Source of the DNA: Escherichia phage DCP548
Sequence record: PQ671645.1
Direction: 5' to 3' (one strand)
DNA length: 64,000 nt
A program made the translations under genes and the position numbers. Below are positions 42,543 through 56,211 of the stretch, one piece after another. The notes beneath the pieces are model-generated. The model did no database searches. It had not been told where the DNA came from and saw nothing but the letters and a program-made list of their open reading frames with translations. The first letter of the stretch is position 1. The number at the start of each line of letters is the position of its first letter.

Positions 42543-43868
42543 TCAAAGTGCCTCCAAGTCTTTAGTGTACTCTGTCACAACATCAGTAGACTTCCAATAC
42601 TCATTTTCTTCTTTCTTAGCTTTAGCTTCTTCCGCTAGTTTACGTGCTTCGTCAGAAGTGATATGGAAGATGTTAAGGCCTACCAGTTTATCGACATGTT
42701 CTTTATACATTTCGATTTGTGCTAGCTCTTCAGTCAAAGCTTTACGAGTCTTGCCCTGAATCACAATTTCGCCACTGATAACTTTTTTGATGAAGTGTGC
42801 CTTAGCAAAAGCCAGTTTAAATGCTTTTTCAGATTCAAGGATTTTGTTGTCAATACGTTTCTGAACGTAAGTCTTACGGACTTCAACAAAATCTTTGATT
42901 AAGTCCACTACATTATCATAGACTGCTAATTTACCCTTTTCATTAATCACTGTGATGTTTTGTGAACGACGTTCGATGAGACTAAAATCTTTCATGATTT
43001 TTTCATGACGTAGCTCTTCATCATCAGGAAGCGAGTACTCTTTACGGAACTTCACCTTAAACCCAAAGCCGTGTTCACCGCAATCATCTTCCCATGAGAT
43101 TAGACCTTTGTCTTCCAACGGGTCAAGAACCTTACTCACATACGTTTCACGGTCAAATTTATATGGGATTTCAGTTATCTGCATTTGAGTGCGAGATGTG
43201 AACTTATATGTTCCGTGAATCTCATAACGCCCATCAACTTCATGTACTTCACCACGGAATTCTGGGAATTCAACTTTTGGCTTAGTAACATTTTTACCTT
43301 GAAGAGCTTGTAATACAGCCTTTTTGACTGATTTAAAACTATGAGGCAGAATATTTGTTGCGTAACCGGTTGCAATACCAGAGACACCATTCAAAAGAAC
43401 TGTCGGAATAATAGGAAGATAGAATTTTGGTGGAATGTGTTCTTTATCTTCATGAGCTGGAGCATATTCAGTATCTTTATATACGTTATAGAAATTTTTA
43501 CTTACACGAGCAAAAATATAACGAGATGCTGCAGCTTTTTGGACTGTTCTAGAACCAAAGTTGCCTTGGCCATCTAACAGTGGATAGTTGTTGTTCCATG
43601 TGTTAGCCATCAATGCACCTGCATCTTGTGCAGAGATTTCACCATGGTGATAACCTAAATCTGCAACACCGCCTGCAATTGACGCAAGTTTATGAAATTT
43701 TTCTTTATTACCACGAGCCAAATCTAACGCACGATGAACCACAAAACGTTGAACCGGCTTAAATCCATCAATCATGTTTGGGATTGCACGGTTTTCAACG
43801 GTGTACATCGCATATGCTAAGGCTTCGTTATCAATAATACTTTTTAGATTACGAGAATTCAATTGCAT
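42543..43868 (-). CDS. 52: DNA topoisomerase II medium subunit gp52 (GyrA-like)
   Basis: 441 aa (T4 gp52 442 aa); GyrA-type features (AIPNMIDGFKPVQR) with an active-site Tyr region. Confidence 0.9.
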   Translation of the reverse strand: MQLNSRNLKSIIDNEALAYAMYTVENRAIPNMIDGFKPVQRFVVHRALDLARGNKEKFHKLASIAGGVADLGYHHGEISAQDAGALMANTWNNNYPLLDGQGNFGSRTVQKAAASRYIFARVSKNFYNVYKDTEYAPAHEDKEHIPPKFYLPIIPTVLLNGVSGIATGYATNILPHSFKSVKKAVLQALQGKNVTKPKVEFPEFRGEVHEVDGRYEIHGTYKFTSRTQMQITEIPYKFDRETYVSKVLDPLEDKGLISWEDDCGEHGFGFKVKFRKEYSLPDDEELRHEKIMKDFSLIERRSQNITVINEKGKLAVYDNVVDLIKDFVEVRKTYVQKRIDNKILESEKAFKLAFAKAHFIKKVISGEIVIQGKTRKALTEELAQIEMYKEHVDKLVGLNIFHITSDEARKLAEEAKAKKEENEYWKSTDVVTEYTKDLEAL

Positions 43869-46075: not shown

Positions 46076-46349
46076 AGATACCTCTGATGTGTAGTTCGCC
46101 AAAATAAATGCGGTCACCTTCTTCAAGATATTCAGCATCTACAGGTGGAATTTCATTAACAACTTCGTCGCATTCTAACCAGCCATAGTGTGCATCACCT
46201 GGGTGTTTTACCAATTTAGCACAATAAACCGATTTACACTTATGATGACCACGAAGATTAGCAATTTTGGATTCTGATACGTCAAATGGATGAATCATAA
46301 TTACCCCTAAAGAAAAAGGGGACCGAAGTCCCCAATTATTATTCTGCAA
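46011..46349 (-). CDS. Hypothetical protein (between rIIB and denB)
   Basis: 112-aa ORF; overlaps the proposed denB start by about 65 nt, so one boundary is probably wrong. Confidence 0.3.
   Translation of the reverse strand: MQNNNWGLRSPFSLGVIMIHPFDVSESKIANLRGHHKCKSVYCAKLVKHPGDAHYGWLECDEVVNEIPPVDAEYLEEGDRIYFGELHIRGIYGKDELGIVETEESSDIYPVE
46313..46333 (-). terminator. Intrinsic terminator after rIIB
   Basis: ggggac-cgaa-gtcccc (46318-46333) followed on the minus transcript by UUUUUCUUU; 6 nt after the rIIB stop. Confidence 0.55.
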
Positions 46350-47286
46350 ATAATTCAGTAACGTCTGAAATTACTTCATAACGACAAGTACGCATCTTAG
46401 CATCGCCATAGTCAACTGGGATGGACACAACATCACGTGGATGAACTTTAACCTTAACAACTTTATCTGAGCTAGAACCAAAGTAACGAATATACGATTT
46501 AGCGCAAACATGTAGACCACGGGAGCAGGTTTGTGTATCATCATCGTTAACACGAGTACGAGGCATTGAAACAACTTTACCTGGTGAGTTATCAAATGTA
46601 CCGCTATAGCAATCTAAATAATCTTTACGAACTACTTTCCACGCGTAGAAATGCCCATCTTCAGTGATTTCAATATCATTTGCAACCAAGAAGTCGAATA
46701 AACGTTGTACAGCTTTTTCGCTTGGGTTTTCTAACAGGTTTTCAAGGAACGGTAGATAGAATTTAAAGTCTTCGCCTTTTTCCATAGAATCAATAATACG
46801 ATTAACCAGACCAGAACGAATCTCTATACCTTGATAAAATAAACTACCACCTTCAATAACAACATTACCGTCAACAAACTTACTAATAGCTTTCTTGATG
46901 TTAATAAGTTCGACAGCTTTACTAAGGTTTCCTGCGACCAGATTAGCTTTAATTTCTTCAAAATTTGCATGACTTGATGGAGTCGCATTGTATGCTACGC
47001 GTCCTTCAATAATTGAAATAAATTTAGATGACGCGTTCCATACGATTTCAGGACGATGTCCGCCGATAATAGGTTCATCATTTTCTGGAACTTCTTCGAT
47101 TACATAAGAGGCATCGTTTGCTTCAGGGACAACGCCTTCTGCTTTAAAATTCTTAACAATCTTACGAAGAGTATCTGTTGAAATGTCGAAGTAATCGGCA
47201 ATTTCTTTACGAGTCCATTTGCCTGATTCAACCAGGCCGTAAGCTTCTAACTGTTCTTCTTGGGATAAGCATTTGATATTGTACAT
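46339..47286 (-). CDS. rIIB: rIIB membrane-associated protein
   Basis: 315 aa (T4 rIIB 312 aa); near-identical N-terminus MYNIKCL and C-terminal half (DGNVVIEGGSLFYQ...VNDDDTQTCSRGLHVC...VHPRDVVSIP). Confidence 0.95.
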   Translation of the reverse strand: MYNIKCLSQEEQLEAYGLVESGKWTRKEIADYFDISTDTLRKIVKNFKAEGVVPEANDASYVIEEVPENDEPIIGGHRPEIVWNASSKFISIIEGRVAYNATPSSHANFEEIKANLVAGNLSKAVELINIKKAISKFVDGNVVIEGGSLFYQGIEIRSGLVNRIIDSMEKGEDFKFYLPFLENLLENPSEKAVQRLFDFLVANDIEITEDGHFYAWKVVRKDYLDCYSGTFDNSPGKVVSMPRTRVNDDDTQTCSRGLHVCAKSYIRYFGSSSDKVVKVKVHPRDVVSIPVDYGDAKMRTCRYEVISDVTELFAE

Positions 47287-47295
47287 AATGTTTCC

Positions 47296-49509
47296 TTATT
47301 TGGCCGCTTCCACGGCCTTCATGAATTTAACGATTTGAGCGACCTGTTCTTTGGAAAGAGTACCACGTCGTCCCATGTATTCTGACACAATATGATAATT
47401 GGTTTCGAATTCAATAACCATTTTATCATCATTATCGTAAGCATTATCTTTAAGCTTATCGAAAATTTTAGCACACAATTCTAACTTCTTATTCAGGTCT
47501 GTATTAGTAGCACCTGCGAATCGATTCCATCCCCAACGATTATTTACTGTTGAGAGTTTTGCAAAATCTTTACTGATTTCTTTGTTTTTAGAGCTAAAAT
47601 ACTTACTAAGGAAGTTAAGCTCTTCATTACGAGTAATATGATTCAAATAAGGCTGTGCTCTACGACTTGGTGATACATACTCATCATAATCCACTTTATC
47701 GATTAGCGTAATATAGTCATTAATTGATTTTTCGAACAAGCATTCTACTTCACCAAGTTTACGAACTTTCTTAGCAATCTGTGGACGAACTACAGTGAAC
47801 TCTTTAATACCTGACAAATCAGCAATACGGGTCAAGAAATTGGAGTCATAGTTCAACCAACCTTTATCTGCGTCAAGACATTCGGCATTAGAACGATTAC
47901 GAACTATAGCATAACCTTGGATTTCATCTGCTTCACTTGCCGGAATAAAGAGGTCTTCTGATACCCAAACATCGTTTTCATTCTTAAAGAATCGATGAGC
48001 ACTCGGGGATTTAGGACGAGGCTCATTAGTCCGTTTCCTGACTTCAATCCATGGCTTAACGATTTGTAAAAGCTCTGAAGTCTTGTACATGTTAATGTTG
48101 TCGCCATCAAAGATAACTTTAAGGCGTTCCAGAAGTTTCATTGCATCTTCGTCTGTAGGGTCAACGAATAGTACGCTTTTACCAAAACCGCGTGGAACTT
48201 TACCGGATAATTTAACCTCGTCTTTAGACATTTCAATTGAATTAAGAGCTCGCATTAATGGAACGCGTCCCTTAACATCGTCAATAACAATTTCAACGTT
48301 TTTAATGTTAATGCCAATCAGGCTGTTAATTGAAATGGTTGATGATGAGCTACCACTTTCACGAATACGACGAAGACGAGGGGATTCAACGATATCGTAT
48401 ACGACACCAAGATTACACCACTCAGGTCCCATTTTAAAACGTTTGTACAACTCAGAATAAGTTAGTTGTTCTTTAGAGTATTTCAGTGATTCAATATTAG
48501 ACCCGGCCTTTTCCATGTATTTACGAGCGGTATAACCAAGAGAATCAATTTCGCGGAACACATGTCGTGGGTATTTACAATCAATCCATTTCTTAGAATC
48601 TTCAGCGAACAATTTAGAATCGATTTCTGCAACGCGTTTATGGATATTTGCTACTGTACGTTTATCAAATGACAATGCTTCGCGAGACGGAGCAACATCT
48701 AGTTCACCCATTGGGAATTTAATATAAGCTGTAGTGCATCGTGTCATCATCCATGTTTGTTCTTTAATAACACTTCCGATTGGATATACAATACCGCCAT
48801 AAACAGCCATGATATTACCACGTTCACCCCATGGAGCTTCCTTGGCCAAATATACATCATCAAATTCTGGGAAGTATTTAATATCTTTAACACCACGAAC
48901 TTCTGCAATATCACCTAGAGGACGCATAACATATGCAATTTCGGATGCAAACTTTTCAAAATCTTCCGGGTTAACCGGTACAACTACTTCTACACCCGTA
49001 CGGTCATCAGGACCCATCTTATCTACAAAGGTCGGCTTAATCTGTGGACCTGTGTCATCTTGGTAGATTACGTAACCACGAACTTCACCATTATGATAAG
49101 ACGTAAGGTTAAACGTATCAGTATATGCTAATGGAGCTTTAGAGCCGAGTCCGAATCCACCAATGAAATCGTTACTCGATGTTTTAGTTGAAGCAAAATA
49201 TGAGTTATAAATTCCTGGCTCTTCGTCATTACCACGAATAGTGAAATCACTCATACCAGGTCCAAAATCACGAACTACAAAACGTGGGTCTAAACGACCT
49301 GGAGCCTGAACAATAAACTTATCAGTGCAACCATTAAGAATTTGCCCATCAATACAGTTTGTGATTAATTCACGTACACAAGCCAATTCTTTGTTTGTAT
49401 AAAGGTCATTAGACAAAATCTTATAAACTTTGCTATTGCCTTGAATAGTAAATGCTGTGCTCTTACCGCCTGAACCAATAATCGTTTCTTTAGCCGTTTC
49501 AATAATCAT
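47296..49509 (-). CDS. rIIA: rIIA membrane-associated protein
   Basis: 737 aa (T4 rIIA 725 aa); GHKL ATPase-like N-terminal region; immediately upstream of rIIB. Confidence 0.9.
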   Translation of the reverse strand: MIIETAKETIIGSGGKSTAFTIQGNSKVYKILSNDLYTNKELACVRELITNCIDGQILNGCTDKFIVQAPGRLDPRFVVRDFGPGMSDFTIRGNDEEPGIYNSYFASTKTSSNDFIGGFGLGSKAPLAYTDTFNLTSYHNGEVRGYVIYQDDTGPQIKPTFVDKMGPDDRTGVEVVVPVNPEDFEKFASEIAYVMRPLGDIAEVRGVKDIKYFPEFDDVYLAKEAPWGERGNIMAVYGGIVYPIGSVIKEQTWMMTRCTTAYIKFPMGELDVAPSREALSFDKRTVANIHKRVAEIDSKLFAEDSKKWIDCKYPRHVFREIDSLGYTARKYMEKAGSNIESLKYSKEQLTYSELYKRFKMGPEWCNLGVVYDIVESPRLRRIRESGSSSSTISINSLIGINIKNVEIVIDDVKGRVPLMRALNSIEMSKDEVKLSGKVPRGFGKSVLFVDPTDEDAMKLLERLKVIFDGDNINMYKTSELLQIVKPWIEVRKRTNEPRPKSPSAHRFFKNENDVWVSEDLFIPASEADEIQGYAIVRNRSNAECLDADKGWLNYDSNFLTRIADLSGIKEFTVVRPQIAKKVRKLGEVECLFEKSINDYITLIDKVDYDEYVSPSRRAQPYLNHITRNEELNFLSKYFSSKNKEISKDFAKLSTVNNRWGWNRFAGATNTDLNKKLELCAKIFDKLKDNAYDNDDKMVIEFETNYHIVSEYMGRRGTLSKEQVAQIVKFMKAVEAAK

Positions 49510-49521
49510 ATTTTTCTCTCA

Positions 49522-49722
49522 TCACAAGTTACGTTTAAAAATTTCTGCTACTTCAAGAAGTTCTTCTTTAGTAGCTGTATCGGTTTGTATTTTATATCGA
49601 ATTTCTTTAAAGCGTTCTTTAAAGGACTCTGCTGACTCGATATCAAAAAATCTTTGGATAAGCCGGAATTCCCGGAGTACAGCTTTATCAAAAAGTTCCA
49701 AGTCCACGTTATATGTTCTCAT
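49522..49722 (-). CDS. Hypothetical small protein (rIIA.1 position)
   Basis: 66-aa ORF directly upstream of rIIA. Confidence 0.45.
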   Translation of the reverse strand: MRTYNVDLELFDKAVLREFRLIQRFFDIESAESFKERFKEIRYKIQTDTATKEELLEVAEIFKRNL

Positions 49723-49814: not shown

Positions 49815-50915
49815 TTACGCTGTGAAGATTTTATCCCACATCGCAACAACTGCATCTCGGTTATACTTCTTCCATACTGCTTCAGCACGTTTAACTCGAG
49901 CTTCGTATGTGTCAGTGAATTCTAATACAGCTTTTGTGTAAAGCGCAACTACTTCTTTCTTAGGAGTAGAGGAATCAATTTCTACACGCACAGTATCTGG
50001 GTCGTATTCGAATGTCGCATGAGGATAATCCTTAAAAACTAACTGGATTACAGGGACACCTTTAGAGATGGCTTCAATAGAACTATTCTCTACCGTACCT
50101 GTGTCAGGACACGTATTAATAAGTGCTTTAGCTGTTTTAAGACGTTCCATGATTTCACTGTGTGGAGCATCAATAATAACAGGATATTTAGCTGGTGGCG
50201 CCCATTTGCTTGGGCAGTATCCTGCACCATTTTCGCCTAGTGCTTTAATCGCTTCAAGAGCAACATCAGTACGACGCATTTTAGTGTCATAACGTTGTGC
50301 ACTAATAATCAGATCCGTCGCCGGAAGAACTTCAGGTTTCTCATTCAAACAAATAACCGGATAATCTTCGGCTTCAAACAACGGATTTGCTCGCCAATAA
50401 TCGTAATCAATTTTGTCAGTCAGACCTGAAGTCATATAACAATATTTGCGTTCAAATTCACGGAAGGCTTTAGTAGGAGCATAACTCTTACCACCATTCT
50501 TATGAATTTGAATAGTCTGGTCCCAAATTTGAACAATGCCACGAGATACCGGTTCAAATGGTGTTGCCATAAAATTCTTATGAACTTTAGAGAGACCTGC
50601 GTCTTTAATTGCCTGAACGGTTAGTTTAGTCGGTTCCATAGTAACAACAAAATCGTATTCATGGATGCCGGCTAGTTCAACAATCTTACGAGCCATAGTA
50701 TAACTCATACCTAGACTGAATTTAGTCAGATGACCAACAGGATGGTGTGTAACTTTCCAGTCACCAAACGTGTCGTTATCAAAGCCGATATAATCAATAT
50801 CAGCACCGATGGACACAAGATATTTCAACACGTTCAAATGAACCGCTTCAAGACCACCTTGTACACGTTCTGGGTTAAATGGGACTGCGCGAGATGGGAT
50901 AAACATAACTTTCAT
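49815..50915 (-). CDS. Putative GT-B fold glycosyltransferase (family 4-like)
   Basis: 366 aa; N-terminus MKVMFIPS...GGLEAV typical of the GT-B N-domain; C-domain has TGTVENSSIEAISKGVPVI resembling the GT4 E-x7-E / ...EAMA.G.PVI motif region; lies where T4 has gene 60 and mobA. Confidence 0.45.
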   Translation of the reverse strand: MKVMFIPSRAVPFNPERVQGGLEAVHLNVLKYLVSIGADIDYIGFDNDTFGDWKVTHHPVGHLTKFSLGMSYTMARKIVELAGIHEYDFVVTMEPTKLTVQAIKDAGLSKVHKNFMATPFEPVSRGIVQIWDQTIQIHKNGGKSYAPTKAFREFERKYCYMTSGLTDKIDYDYWRANPLFEAEDYPVICLNEKPEVLPATDLIISAQRYDTKMRRTDVALEAIKALGENGAGYCPSKWAPPAKYPVIIDAPHSEIMERLKTAKALINTCPDTGTVENSSIEAISKGVPVIQLVFKDYPHATFEYDPDTVRVEIDSSTPKKEVVALYTKAVLEFTDTYEARVKRAEAVWKKYNRDAVVAMWDKIFTA

Positions 50916-50930
50916 AATTAAGCCTTATTA

Positions 50931-50959
50931 AAATTAAAATGAAGCTCCCGAAGGAGCTT
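50931..50959 (-). terminator. Terminator-like hairpin after gene 39
   Basis: aagctcc-cgaa-ggagctt (50942-50959) overlapping the gene 39 stop, followed on the minus transcript by a U-rich tract. Confidence 0.45.
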
Positions 50960-52775
50960 AGGACATCCATTCTTTACGAAGTTCTGAATCATCACCCATC
51001 AACATTTCAAAGAGTTCTTTCCAATTTTCAGGAAGTTTAACTACGTCGTACACAGGGTTCTGAATCATTTCACGATATTCTGACTTTTCAAGGGAGCCTA
51101 ATCCCTTGATGTATCGAATACTATGCTTAGGCAGTGTATCTTTAACTTCTTCATACTCAGCTACAGTATAAAACCATTTTTGAGTTTTGCCAATTTGTGC
51201 AATAATTACAGGCGTTTTAACAAAGCGAATACGTCCTTGTTCAAACAATTCAGGCCAATTACTAAAGAAAGCAAGCAAAGCCGGATAGATACTTCCAAGA
51301 CCGTCATGATCGGCATCGGTCATAATTGCAATATTACGATAGTTCGTATTCTCTGCCTTTTCACCAAGAATAAGACCTGTGATAGCACAGATATCGAAGA
51401 GCTCTTTGTTCTTCATCATATCGGCATATGACATACCCCAGCTATTCATCACCTTACCACGTAATGGGAATCCACCGTGTAGTTCACGGTCACGAACATC
51501 AATGAGATAACCAATTGCCGAATCACCTTCTGTTAAAAACAATGTCGTATCTGCATCTTTACCACATTGGTTAGCTTTAATATGCTTATGAACCTTAGCT
51601 TTAGTTGCCTTTTTAGCTGCTTTAGTTTCTGCAGCCTTTTCTGCTGCCAATTTACGAGCTAATGCTGCTTCAACAATAGGCATAATCAAGGCTTCGTTTT
51701 TAAGAAGTGCCTGAGCAATTTTCTTAGCATCTAATTGGATATGATTACGAATATCGCCATACGTTGACGTTAAACGTTCTTTAGTCTGAGAATCAAAACG
51801 CATGTTGCTCATGTCTCTAATAAACATCAACATTGTGAGACATTCTTTAACACGAGCTTTAGTGACTTCAATACCCTTATATTTCTTTTTAATACCCGGC
51901 AAAAGATGTTCGCAGATATCATCCATTACACATTCAACATGATGACCACCATTTTTAGTATGGATGTTATTCACATAAGTTAAATGACGGAAGCCGTCCG
52001 GCGATGTTGTGAATGCTATAGAGACTTTATCATTTTCTTGAATGATGCTATCTTCGCCAAATTGTTTAGCAAATCGTTTAAAATTACCATCAACCTTTTT
52101 ACCATTAAATGTGAACTTGATATCAGGATAAACGACTGCCAATGTTTGAAGTCGGTCTAAAGTAATATCTAAATAAATTTGAGATAAATTATGCTCTTCA
52201 AATGAAGAGAAATCAGGAGTGAAGATTACTTTAGTGCCTTTACCTTTAGATTTCTTAGAAGACCATGATTTGTTTTCCATTCCGTTTGAACAGTTAACAG
52301 TGATTTCATTTTCGCCATCTGACGTGATGCCTGTAAACAACGTAGAGAAGATATTAGTTAAACTACTCCCGACGCCGTTCATACCACCAGTCTTGCGTTC
52401 AGAGTCATCACCAAAGTTACCACCGGCCTTTGGAATAGTCCAGGCCGCTACAGGCCCAGGAATTTGTTCACCTGTTTGGTCGGTAACTAAACCTTGAGGA
52501 ATACCACGCCCGTTATCTTCCACTGAAACTTGATTATTTTTAATTTGCACATCAATTTTATTTGCAAACTTAAATGATGTACGAATAGCTTCATCAACCG
52601 AGTTGTCAATAATCTCATCGATTAATTTAACCAGACCAGGAACATATTCAACTTGTTGATATTTACCAAACAAAAAACGCTCGTGGGCTTCTTTAGCCGA
52701 AGAACCAATATACATACCACTACGTTTCTTAATATGTTCTACATCTGACAATACCTTAATTTCATTTTTAATCAT
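50958..52775 (-). CDS. 39: DNA topoisomerase II large subunit (GyrB-like), uninterrupted gp39+gp60 form
   Basis: 605 aa; N-terminal GHKL ATPase; C-terminal 130 aa (IAIMTDADHDGLGSIYP...KLPENWKELFEMLMGD) match T4 gp60, so the protein is contiguous with no bypass element. Confidence 0.95.
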   Translation of the reverse strand: MIKNEIKVLSDVEHIKKRSGMYIGSSAKEAHERFLFGKYQQVEYVPGLVKLIDEIIDNSVDEAIRTSFKFANKIDVQIKNNQVSVEDNGRGIPQGLVTDQTGEQIPGPVAAWTIPKAGGNFGDDSERKTGGMNGVGSSLTNIFSTLFTGITSDGENEITVNCSNGMENKSWSSKKSKGKGTKVIFTPDFSSFEEHNLSQIYLDITLDRLQTLAVVYPDIKFTFNGKKVDGNFKRFAKQFGEDSIIQENDKVSIAFTTSPDGFRHLTYVNNIHTKNGGHHVECVMDDICEHLLPGIKKKYKGIEVTKARVKECLTMLMFIRDMSNMRFDSQTKERLTSTYGDIRNHIQLDAKKIAQALLKNEALIMPIVEAALARKLAAEKAAETKAAKKATKAKVHKHIKANQCGKDADTTLFLTEGDSAIGYLIDVRDRELHGGFPLRGKVMNSWGMSYADMMKNKELFDICAITGLILGEKAENTNYRNIAIMTDADHDGLGSIYPALLAFFSNWPELFEQGRIRFVKTPVIIAQIGKTQKWFYTVAEYEEVKDTLPKHSIRYIKGLGSLEKSEYREMIQNPVYDVVKLPENWKELFEMLMGDDSELRKEWMS

Positions 52776-52821
52776 GTTGTCTCCTCGTTATGAAGGTATT
52801 CTATCATCCGAAATCTAAAGC

Positions 52822-52838
52822 AAAAAGGGCCGAAGCCC
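52822..52838 (-). terminator. Intrinsic terminator-like hairpin after ORF 52839..53264
   Basis: gggc-cgaa-gccc with aaaaa on the plus side (U5 on the minus transcript). Confidence 0.45.
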
Positions 52839-53264
52839 TTATTTAAATTTAATTTTCTGAAGTGCATCAATTGCAGCCAAACGCCCTTGTTCACTTTTAA
52901 CTGTAATGACCACATCGCCTGATACGATCACCGAACCATCAACAAATTCTATAGAGCCTTTTTTGAAATCGACAGCTGTATCTGGTTCCGGAACTTCTTC
53001 AAAGAATTTAAATTCTGCACCATAAAGCAGAATATCACCTTGCATACTATGAATAGTTCGGCCATAATCGCCTACGGCTTCTACAGCAATAACCGAAACG
53101 CCGTAACCAATCATCTCTTCCACAATAAAATCTTTGGACAATAAAGTAGTATGCAGATTAGTATTAAGACGCTTACCAGTCGTATTAAGAATTCTCAAGA
53201 AATTATCTTCCTGTCCTTTGATAATACGATATTTCTTACCAACTTCAAAACCTTTAAAAGCCAT
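52839..53264 (-). CDS. Hypothetical protein
   Basis: 141-aa ORF followed by a CGAA-loop terminator hairpin at 52827-52838. Confidence 0.45.
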   Translation of the reverse strand: MAFKGFEVGKKYRIIKGQEDNFLRILNTTGKRLNTNLHTTLLSKDFIVEEMIGYGVSVIAVEAVGDYGRTIHSMQGDILLYGAEFKFFEEVPEPDTAVDFKKGSIEFVDGSVIVSGDVVITVKSEQGRLAAIDALQKIKFK

Positions 53265-54727: not shown

Positions 54728-55147
54728 TTATGCAAAAGATGCTGGGCAATATTTTTTGATTTGGAACTCAGGAACTACCATGAACTGACCAGCGAAAACG
54801 ATGTTATAAAGCTTAACACCATCTTCTACCCAACGGTCGCTAATAAATCCGGCGATTTGCTTAGTTTTCCACGGCGTTCCATCAGTTGCCGCAGCAATAG
54901 TGAATTCATGGTCTTTTACAACTAAAACAGACCTGCACAGTTTCCATTTGAACACACGTTCTTCTGACTCAATGAATTGGCTTTTAACATAACCAATGTT
55001 ACCATCAGCGTCACGAACTTTAACTTCGTTACGTCCAAAAACCGGATCACTCACAGAAAGAACTTCAACCAACTTCCCGGCAACTTTAGAGCGAGAAGCA
55101 ACAGATACATATACGTAATCACCTGTAGAGAGATTTACAATATTCAT
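54728..55147 (-). CDS. Hypothetical protein, member A of a three-gene tandem paralogue family
   Basis: 139 aa; shares N-terminal (..VASRSKVAGKLVEV..) and C-terminal (GFISDRWVEDGVKLYNIVFAGQF.VVPE) blocks with the ORF at 55157..55654. Confidence 0.5.
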   Translation of the reverse strand: MNIVNLSTGDYVYVSVASRSKVAGKLVEVLSVSDPVFGRNEVKVRDADGNIGYVKSQFIESEERVFKWKLCRSVLVVKDHEFTIAAATDGTPWKTKQIAGFISDRWVEDGVKLYNIVFAGQFMVVPEFQIKKYCPASFA

Positions 55148-55156
55148 AATAATTCC

Positions 55157-55654
55157 TTAAGCTTTAAGAGGAGACACATAGCGAGTGATTTCAGATTCTT
55201 TAACAACTCGGAAGTCACCTAAGAATACGATATTGTATAACTTTTCACCATCTTCAACCCATTGGTCACTAATGAAGCCACACATGATATCGGTTGTGCT
55301 TGGATAACCGTATTCGTCGATGTAATCGAATTCTTTATCGGTTATAAATTCAACGCCTTTACACAAGGCCCATTTGAACTGTACATTAGGCTCAACGATA
55401 TCGCTTGAAGCAAAGTGTGCAGGTGCAACTTCTTCGCTTGAAGCAAATTGGACTCGTATATGTTTTTCCAGGAATTTAGGACTTACGTAAGCATACTGGG
55501 CATCTTGTCCGCCAAAACTGGGGATGATTCGAACTTTAACTTCTTTAACACGTCCCATGCCGTTAGTACGAAGCCCTGCTACTTCAACCAGACGACCTGC
55601 AGCTTTAGAACGAGAAGCAGGAGATACACGAAGGATTTCACCAATAGTAATCAT
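55157..55654 (-). CDS. Hypothetical protein, member B of the tandem paralogue family
   Basis: Track ORF trimmed to Met MITIGEIL (start codon 55652-55654); C-terminal block GFISDQWVEDGEKLYNIVFLGDFRVVKE; promoter 55685-55714 upstream. Confidence 0.5.
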   Translation of the reverse strand: MITIGEILRVSPASRSKAAGRLVEVAGLRTNGMGRVKEVKVRIIPSFGGQDAQYAYVSPKFLEKHIRVQFASSEEVAPAHFASSDIVEPNVQFKWALCKGVEFITDKEFDYIDEYGYPSTTDIMCGFISDQWVEDGEKLYNIVFLGDFRVVKESEITRYVSPLKA

Positions 55655-55684
55655 ATTTTTTCTCTCTTTGTTTAAGTTGAATTC

Positions 55685-55714
55685 ATTATACTCCATCCAT
55701 CCTTGGATGTACAA
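55685..55714 (-). promoter_or_regulatory. T4-type early promoter upstream of paralogue B
   Basis: -35 TTGTAC variant (plus 55709-55714), 18-bp spacer, -10 TATAAT; shares the attatactcc...ccttgg motif with cassettes at 9331 and 56243. Confidence 0.4.
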
Positions 55715-55716
55715 CA

Positions 55717-56211
55717 TTAATTTAGAATATTAACTACTGCACTACGTGGAACCACACTAAAATCACCGGCATGAACAACGTTCAGAAGTTCAACCCCATC
55801 TTCAATCCACTGGTCAGTTACCCATCCATTTACCGGACCATCGAATGGGCGTCGAATTGAAACATATTTACACAACAAATCAGTAGGCTCAATAGGCTTA
55901 ATCAGAGTACCGTACATACAAACGATATCCATATCAAAGTGGAGACCATCTTTAACAGGTGCTTCTTCAATCAACAGTTCAAAGTCGGTGCTTGGAATGG
56001 CAGTAGTAGAAATTGTACCGTATGAATTTTTAATTTCTAAGAATAACCAAGGGCCTTCAACTTGTTTGATGAAGTTAACAATAGTGAAACTATTACCTTG
56101 AGTGGCACCTAAAATTTCACAAAACTTTTCATAAGCTCGCACTGAAGCACCGTACCAGTTGATTTGTTTTTCGTCTTTCAGGATGTAAGTAGCCATAGTA
56201 TTGATATTCAT
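55717..56211 (-). CDS. Hypothetical protein, member C of the tandem paralogue family
   Basis: 164 aa; C-terminal block GWVTDQWIEDGVELLNVVHAGDFSVVP is shared with members A and B; promoter 56243-56272 upstream. Confidence 0.5.
   Translation of the reverse strand: MNINTMATYILKDEKQINWYGASVRAYEKFCEILGATQGNSFTIVNFIKQVEGPWLFLEIKNSYGTISTTAIPSTDFELLIEEAPVKDGLHFDMDIVCMYGTLIKPIEPTDLLCKYVSIRRPFDGPVNGWVTDQWIEDGVELLNVVHAGDFSVVPRSAVVNILN

Follow-up and report, generated by a model that had tools for sequence, protein, structure and literature searches.

Gene 39 of Escherichia phage DCP548 (sequence record PQ671645.1) lies on the minus strand at 50958..52775 of the 64,000-nt stretch of DNA that was analysed here as a whole and that we refer to as the window. 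The ORF listing, BLASTP, Pfam, phmmer and PHROG 543 assign it to the large, GyrB/ParE-like subunit of a type IIA topoisomerase. In the ORF listing the gene is one ORF of 605 aa that starts with ATG and ends on TAA, and when it is read codon by codon no in-frame stop precedes this terminal TAA, confirming that the gene is single and uninterrupted, as an earlier sequence-only reading had claimed. The ORF matches the PHROGs family "DNA topoisomerase II large subunit" (PHROG 543) over its entire length, and residues 1-605 match T6 gp39 (PDB 8YLU; phmmer, E=0).

The N-terminal GHKL ATPase domain (aa 47-189; 52209..52637, minus strand) is recognised by the Pfam model HATPase_c (PF02518) with 43.9 bits against a cut-off of 26.4 (E=3.6e-11). 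It is followed by the transducer domain including the QTK loop (aa 249-385; 51621..52031, minus strand), which DNA_gyraseB (PF00204) identifies with 53.5 bits against a cut-off of 27 (E=2.6e-14) and in which SQTKERL is seen in the translation. The Toprim domain (aa 411-519; 51219..51545, minus strand) is contiguous, with LTEGDSA (residues 415-421) and MTDADHDG (residues 485-492) standing on one chain; EGDSA and DADHD are the metal-binding motifs, providing the catalytic Glu and the DxDxD motif. These motifs were taken from the alignment, and the Pfam match to Toprim (PF01751) is below the curated cut-off (17.5 versus 23.1 bits), as are the matches to TOPRIM_C (27.8 versus 29 bits) and GyrB_C (17.3 versus 29.8 bits). 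Sub-threshold Pfam scores are usual for divergent phage enzymes, and the full-length match to T6 gp39 outweighs all three of them.

The gene for the partner cleavage subunit, gp52, is found within the window about 7 kb from gene 39. This gene 52 homologue (42543..43868, minus strand) encodes a GyrA/ParC-like protein of 441 aa (Pfam PF00521, E=2.7e-77). By analogy with T6 gp39 and gp52, for which both structures and assays are available (PMC11461880), gp39 of the window would be expected to carry out ATP-dependent strand passage and to assemble with the subunit stoichiometry of the T6 enzyme.

On the same strand, gene 39 is followed by a glycosyltransferase (GT) gene of the GT-B type (49815..50915, 366 aa), by an rIIA.1 homologue (49522..49722; Pfam PF24210, E=2e-30), which forms the conserved downstream anchor of a variable interval, and by rIIA (47296-49509) and rIIB (46339-47286), the last two taken from the ORF listing. 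This minus-strand early block is of the T4 type and also contains a 141-aa ORF, a 59-aa zinc-ribbon ORF (39.2-like), goF, cef, small ORFs, dexA and dda. The terminator scan placed a hairpin with a UUCG loop, AAGCTCC-TTCG-GGAGCTT, over the stop codon of gene 39 (50942..50959, minus strand), with a T-rich tract behind it; it has the appearance of a terminator or of a hairpin that stabilises the RNA, and the record of PhAPEC2 annotates the corresponding hairpin as 'terminator'. Another hairpin from the same scan (52825..52840, minus strand) is located upstream of gene 39, after the ORF at the 39.1 position, and is followed by TTTGCTTTA (52816-52824) and TAGAAT (52798-52803). The former resembles a MotA box, and we take the two together to be a candidate middle promoter, based on the T4 middle-promoter consensus.

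For the comparison with T4, gp39 and gp60 were built from NC_000866, with gp60 joined across the 50-nt gap, and aligned with the window protein by BLASTP. Residues 1-474 correspond to T4 gp39 1-473 (375 of 474 identical, 79%, E=0) and residues 473-605 to T4 gp60 27-159 (116 of 133 identical, 87%, E=7e-88), so that the alignment proposed as a check of the earlier reading is collinear and ends in a gp60-like C-terminus. The gp60-homologous part (50961..51359, minus strand) is indeed in frame with the gp39-like part, but comprises 133 residues and not the 130 given previously. Neither T4 gp39 474-516 (its ~43 C-terminal residues) nor gp60 1-26 has a counterpart in the window according to BLASTP, and the last ~43 aa of gp39 and the first ~26 aa of gp60 have been described as insert-derived extensions, termed CTE and NTE, respectively (bioRxiv 10.1101/2022.08.31.505936).

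The position at which the T4 gene is split corresponds to window residues ~474-478, and the T4 take-off codon, Gly46, corresponds to G492. Based on the alignment and on published coordinates (bioRxiv 10.1101/2022.08.31.505936), the site that matches the insertion of the T4 MobA/bypass cassette (codons 474-492; 51300..51356, minus strand) is empty. Insertion of MobA divides the metal-binding site (bioRxiv 10.1101/2022.08.31.505936). Accordingly, whereas the two Toprim motifs of T4 are divided between gp39 and gp60, both are present in one chain in the window.

The sequence-only reading had also excluded a translational bypass element and had suggested searching near residue 475 for take-off or landing codons and for a stable hairpin with an in-frame stop. 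Nothing of this kind was found, although the equivalent of the take-off codon is G492 and not a residue around 475. At this position the window reads GAT CAT GAC GGT CTT GGA AGT in frame, with GGT encoding G492, whereas T4 has GAT GGA TAG, then a hairpin and the 50-nt gap, and then GGA TTA GGT; at the equivalent site of the window there is neither a stop codon nor a 50-nt gap. The RNA fold of the 151 nt around the window site is ordinary (z = -0.62), whereas the equivalent T4 fold shows a 10-bp take-off hairpin capped by UUCG, and a search of the entire 64-kb window for the motif of this hairpin, allowing up to three mismatches, gave 0 matches. Scanning the complete 64 kb against Rfam at gathering thresholds did not yield any match either.

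MobA was sought in the window by tblastn with every ORF of the T4 insert. The sole match was a segment of homR (20 aa, 70% identity), and blastn of the T4 insert against the window likewise returned only a 45-nt match to homR (76% identical). Because homR is itself homologous to the topoisomerase, we conclude that there is no MobA in the window. The two phages share a homologous enzyme and a neighbourhood of rIIA, rIIA.1, 39.2, goF, cef and dexA. They differ in that T4 has, and the window does not have, the split, the gp39 CTE, the gp60 NTE, mobA/60.1, the GGA-UAG take-off site with its hairpin, and the 50-nt gap. The absence of the T4 split, of the 50-nt hop and of mobA, as claimed earlier, is thus borne out by BLASTP, by the in-frame codons, by tblastn and by the hairpin search.

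The window phage is a Mosigvirus of the RB69/JS09 type. About 150 Mosigvirus (RB69-like) genomes match the region with 98-99% identity, and the near-identical DNA matches listed are all collinear with the window. The DNA topoisomerase II large subunit of JS09 is 100% identical to that of the window at the protein level, and RB69 (AY303349) is 98.7% identical at the DNA level over the 3' 785 nt, with the same neighbours (GT, rIIA.1 and rIIA); differences between these two phages and the window are restricted to a few synonymous or conservative substitutions. The RB69 record labels the gene "60plus39: large subunit topoisomerase II", and the record of Aeromonas phage 44RR2.8t does likewise. In total, 146 database records encode a protein with at least 95% identity. 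The continuous frame could in principle be an artefact of assembly or sequencing that masks a frameshift, a stop codon or a short gap, yet the same frame is found in all of these 146 independently sequenced records, and in view of this concordance and of the 100% identity to JS09 we regard the probability of an artefact as negligible.

Homologues of the large subunit are present in 1,799 phage records (tblastn). Those inspected are single full-length genes and come from at least seven genera, and unsplit full-length homologues are found in Tequatrovirus, Marfavirus, Bragavirus, Lazarusvirus, Biquartavirus and others. Only about 43 records contain the T4-type insert, consisting of mobA, 60.1 and the bypass, with an identity of at least 95%, and diverged T4-type inserts occur in a few dozen more from Salmonella, Proteus and Acinetobacter phages. 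The earlier reading had described the window against T4 as the baseline, and while the absences that it listed are correct, the unsplit gene is the overwhelmingly common state and is the one termed "parental" in the work on MobA (bioRxiv 10.1101/2022.08.31.505936). Enzymes with two subunits are known from T2 and T6, and T4 is described as the sole three-subunit case (PMC11461880).

A reversed polarity, in which the split is ancestral and the ORF of the window is a secondary fusion of separate genes 39 and 60, has to be considered because the choice between 'gene-fusion or gene-separation' was left formally open in the study of the T6 enzyme (PMC11461880). However, the arrangement is contiguous in some 1,750 of roughly 1,800 phage records from many genera, bacterial GyrB/ParE and eukaryotic Topo II are also contiguous and align across the junction, and the split always accompanies a mobile endonuclease cassette or the remnants of one. 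Since contiguity is universal in phages, bacteria and eukaryotes and the split is tied to endonuclease cassettes, a secondary fusion is contradicted, and we assign it a very low probability.

Gp39 of T2 and T6 is likewise a single polypeptide of 605 aa with an identical domain order, and cryo-EM structures of T6 gp39 have been solved (8YLU and others; PMC11461880). T2 and T6 belong to another genus, Tequatrovirus, whose homologues are about 82% identical to the window protein; the alignment also shows indels of one codon each, near residue 301 and at the C-terminal end. A codon alignment with gp39 of the Tequatrovirus FelixPlatter contains only one internal indel, of 3 nt, which is far from the MobA site. 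Alignment with fused homologues of other T-even phages, the second comparison called for by the sequence-only reading, therefore gave collinearity with both T6 gp39 (8YLU) and FelixPlatter gp39, and the window protein conforms to the unsplit ('parental') Topo2L in being collinear with T2/T6/RB14-type gp39 and free of CTE/NTE remnants.

The missing remnants also bear on a 'hit and run' history, in which a MobA cassette once split the gene and was later excised, restoring the single ORF. Such a course has been proposed for an Aeromonas phage clade, and the 1.1-kb MobA element has entered codons ~466-491 in at least 10 independent insertions (both bioRxiv 10.1101/2022.08.31.505936); MobA elements moreover circulate among phages of the hosts of the window phage. 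The Aeromonas cases, however, keep CTE/NTE residues, whereas the window has no extra residues at codons 466-492, its length of 605 aa is that of T2/T6 gp39, the Tequatrovirus codon alignment is gapless near the MobA site, and no MobA insert was found among the sampled Mosigvirus matches. Invasion followed by excision is accordingly quite improbable for this gene, if slightly less so than a secondary fusion.

Given the uninterrupted frame, the full-length T6 match, the frequency of the unsplit state and the presence of gp52, gene 39 of the window is therefore almost certainly an intact, never-invaded 'parental' large subunit of the Mosigvirus standard type that is conventionally translated. Sequence continuity, domain content, homology and the absence of every cassette component are direct observations. 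One polypeptide bears the GHKL ATPase, the transducer, the contiguous Toprim domain and a C-terminal tail, and presumably pairs with gp52 to form an A2B2 enzyme as in T2 and T6. The three-subunit enzyme of T4 is the derived form, having arisen when a MobA homing-endonuclease cassette entered the Toprim region; this cassette consists of the endonuclease gene, the sequences for the CTE and the NTE, and the 50-nt bypass, and it is lacking from the window phage. No feature of the sequence speaks against this reading.

The window phage is thereby confirmed, by gene content, to have the standard two-subunit T-even topoisomerase II. The uninterrupted gene 39 is already known, and the description of it is accurate but ordinary; that the T4 split and the ribosomal hop belong to a mobile cassette and not to the enzyme is likewise already established. 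For annotation, the gene should be named gene 39 (large subunit) and not a "fusion".

A second empty site was identified at the 3' end of gene 39. Alignment with relatives that carry an 800-nt Mob-type HNH gene places its insertion point in the last two codons of gene 39 (50961..50969, minus strand). The insert lies between the penultimate and the last codon, the exact insertion point being ambiguous within a repeated TGGATG, and encodes a 265-aa HNH/NUMOD3 homing endonuclease. Carriers are phi25-307, SQ17, phiC120, a20, AV114, AV115 and the Tequatrovirus F1; at an identity of at least 95% the endonuclease is present in 28 records, of which those inspected are close Mosigvirus relatives. The topoisomerase of the carriers other than F1 terminates in ...WMLG as opposed to ...WMS, and the start of the endonuclease overlaps the stop codon (TAATG), an overlap with the upstream stop codon being typical of mob genes (PMC2988022). 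The endonuclease ORF in turn ends on the original TCC TAA of gene 39, after which the UUCG hairpin follows. The closest known counterparts are the free-standing Mob-family HNH homing endonucleases of T-even phages (MobA, MobE and relatives); over its first 71 aa the 265-aa protein shares 61% identity with MobA, and the remainder is unrelated. In contrast to MobA, the 265-aa element leaves the gene unsplit, comes without a bypass cassette and is located at the last two codons instead of in the Toprim domain. In the window, both endonuclease sites are unoccupied.

Of the 50 differences between gene 39 of the carriers other than F1 and that of the window, 31 fall into its final ~190 nt. Among them is a dense patch at columns 1683-1704 of the gene, which changes the protein from SLEKSEYRE to SLQRDEYKE in endonuclease-bearing phages. 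A strict linkage between the patch and the endonuclease was rejected, as the patch is present in 53 records (at least 95% identity) and the endonuclease in 28; JM17 has the substitution patch without the insert. Up to about column 1400 the gene 39 of F1 resembles that of Tequatrovirus, and from about column 1419 to its end that of Mosigvirus. Downstream, F1 has retained the hairpin of Mosigvirus together with the initial ~57 nt of the GT gene, and a duplicated remnant of the Tequatrovirus gene 39 end comes next. This arrangement is the signature expected from homing with co-conversion across a genus boundary, in the course of which the final ~415 nt of gene 39 and the initial ~57 nt of the arabinosyltransferase gene appear to have been transferred into F1.

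It seems to us an evenly balanced question whether 50961-50969 is the empty homing site of a Mob-family HNH endonuclease that is polymorphic in Mosigvirus and has apparently moved into vB_EcoM_F1. If so, the T-even large-subunit gene would be targeted by two Mob endonucleases of unrelated specificity at sites separated by about 390 nt, and for either endonuclease the window phage would be a naive recipient; the patch at columns 1683-1704 would then mark the cleavage or recognition site. The 265-aa endonuclease is already annotated in database records and is mentioned only in passing in the phiC120 genome paper (PMC8022965), and no dedicated analysis of an endonuclease at the 3' end of gene 39 was found in the searchable literature. 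The second Mob-type element and its apparent inter-genus transfer are therefore mildly new, and they concern the relatives and not the window itself. Their side value is modest: they illustrate, in nature, gene flow driven by an endonuclease between T-even genera that are otherwise mutually exclusive, and they single out the window phage as a clean recipient in experiments on homing.

The GT gene downstream of gene 39 is a homologue of RB69 gp3/ORF003c and encodes a putative DNA arabinosyltransferase. The entries PDB 9IQZ/9IR0 ("glycosyltransferase subfamily 4-like") are near-identical to the 366-aa protein (phmmer, E=6e-250), and the homologue in the BASEL phage Bas46 is annotated as "putative hmC-arabinosyltransferase". 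RB69 ORF003c was proposed as an arabinosyltransferase in 2018 (PMC6024577), and a 2026 study lists RB69 gp3 as putative beta-arabinosyltransferase 2 and interprets the modification of RB69 anew, as arabinosylated 5-hydroxycytosine (PMC13326640). Pfam gave no matches for the GT gene or for rIIA; the Bas46 annotation, the match to 9IQZ and the literature nevertheless show that the label "GT-like" given to the gene in the sequence-only reading is right. At an identity of at least 95% the gene is found in about 155 records, mostly from Escherichia and Shigella phages. The GT-bearing records inspected (Bas46, JK45, phi25-307 and SQ17) are RB69-like by sequence, JK45 being filed under Tequatrovirus. 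Acinetobacter T4-like phages have a GT at about 42% identity, which in KARL-1, the one phage compared, is at another genome position. In Tequatrovirus, the genus of T2 and T6, rIIA.1 directly follows gene 39 without a GT gene, and only about 54 nt separate gene 39 (or 60) from rIIA.1.

The GT gene had been taken as a different insertion at the junction next to that of the T4 element. It is lineage-specific and does lie between gene 39 and rIIA.1, but this is not the junction of the T4 element: the MobA site is inside the Toprim domain (codons ~466-491), whereas the GT gene lies beyond the stop codon and the UUCG hairpin overlapping it, about 390 nt farther downstream. We accordingly rejected the GT gene as a marker of the MobA site, the one position being intergenic and the other intragenic.

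The same reading had gone on to call the locus a recurrent insertion hotspot. For such a claim, one cargo gene beside one homing site is insufficient, but other data do show the locus to be variable, among them the second endonuclease at the end of gene 39, its apparent transfer into F1 and the at least 10 independent insertions of MobA. Between the topoisomerase gene and rIIA.1 or rIIA, Tequatrovirus has nothing, Marfavirus an ORF of 108 aa, Klebsiella phage Roth01 an ORF of 50 aa, Lazarusvirus several genes, among them RnlB, and 44RR2.8t five small ORFs. In JK45, a 503-nt tandem duplication repeats GT residues 237-366 as an extra ORF. In one Kuttervirus, an endonuclease is located directly upstream of the topoisomerase gene. 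The locus is thus plastic through several unrelated events at several sites, and the idea of a hotspot is only partly supported, by evidence that was not available to the sequence-only reading.

In 28 database phages, the final two codons of gene 39, which encodes the topoisomerase II large subunit, are separated by an 800-nt gene for a Mob-type homing endonuclease (265 aa, HNH/NUMOD3; in phage phi25-307 at L010:2543-3340), whose reading frame terminates at the original gene 39 stop codon. The carriers inspected among these 28 are Mosigviruses and Tequatrovirus F1, and the last ~190 nt of gene 39 are divergent in carriers of the endonuclease. The endonuclease gene is absent from the window, in which the empty site lies at about 50961-50969. 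In Kuttervirus vB_Sen_ST2, a member of the unrelated family Ackermannviridae, the topoisomerase II large-subunit gene is overlapped by a homing endonuclease gene located directly upstream (L014:669-1517).

The gene 39 of Tequatrovirus vB_EcoM_F1 (MT682712; L012:2365-5157 including the downstream elements) is chimeric, being of Tequatrovirus type to about nt 1400 and of Mosigvirus type from there to its end. On its 3' side come the Mob-type endonuclease and the Mosigvirus hairpin, then the initial ~57 nt of the arabinosyltransferase gene and lastly a duplicate of the Tequatrovirus gene 39 tail. This arrangement looks like the product of homing between genera with co-conversion. The crossover falls within nt 1399-1419, a stretch that has also been reported for insertions of MobA, the endonuclease whose cassette splits gene 39 in T4; this might be a coincidence.

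A dense patch of substitutions at columns 1683-1704 of the gene 39 alignment (window ~51072-51093, minus strand) changes SLEKSEYRE to SLQRDEYKE. The latter version occurs in 53 records; some of these are Tequatrovirus or Yersinia phages, and some do not have the downstream endonuclease (e.g. JM17). This version may represent an endonuclease-resistant allele that spreads independently.

Upstream of gene 39, the minus strand contains, in order, a UUCG hairpin, TTTGCTTTA, a 12-nt spacer and TAGAAT (window 52798-52840). The last three elements resemble the T4 MotA-dependent middle-promoter consensus and constitute a candidate promoter. The Shine-Dalgarno sequence GAGGAG is found 6 nt 5' of the gene 39 ATG.

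The GT protein of the window (49815-50915, minus strand) is nearly identical to the protein of PDB entries 9IQZ/9IR0. Its RB69 homologue, gp3, is listed as putative beta-arabinosyltransferase 2 in a 2026 study that reinterprets the modified base of RB69 as arabinosylated 5-hydroxycytosine (PMC13326640). In Shigella phage JK45, rIIA.1 is separated from the GT gene by an additional 136-aa ORF (L003:1916-2326), in which GT residues 237-366 are copied exactly; this is a tandem partial duplication of ~503 nt or possibly an assembly artefact.

Between cef and dexA, at the motB.1/motB.2 position, the window contains three tandem minus-strand ORFs of 139, 186 and 164 aa (54728-56211). They appear to form a paralogous family and have the C-terminal motif …D.W[VI]EDG..L.N[IV]V..G.F.VV… in common.
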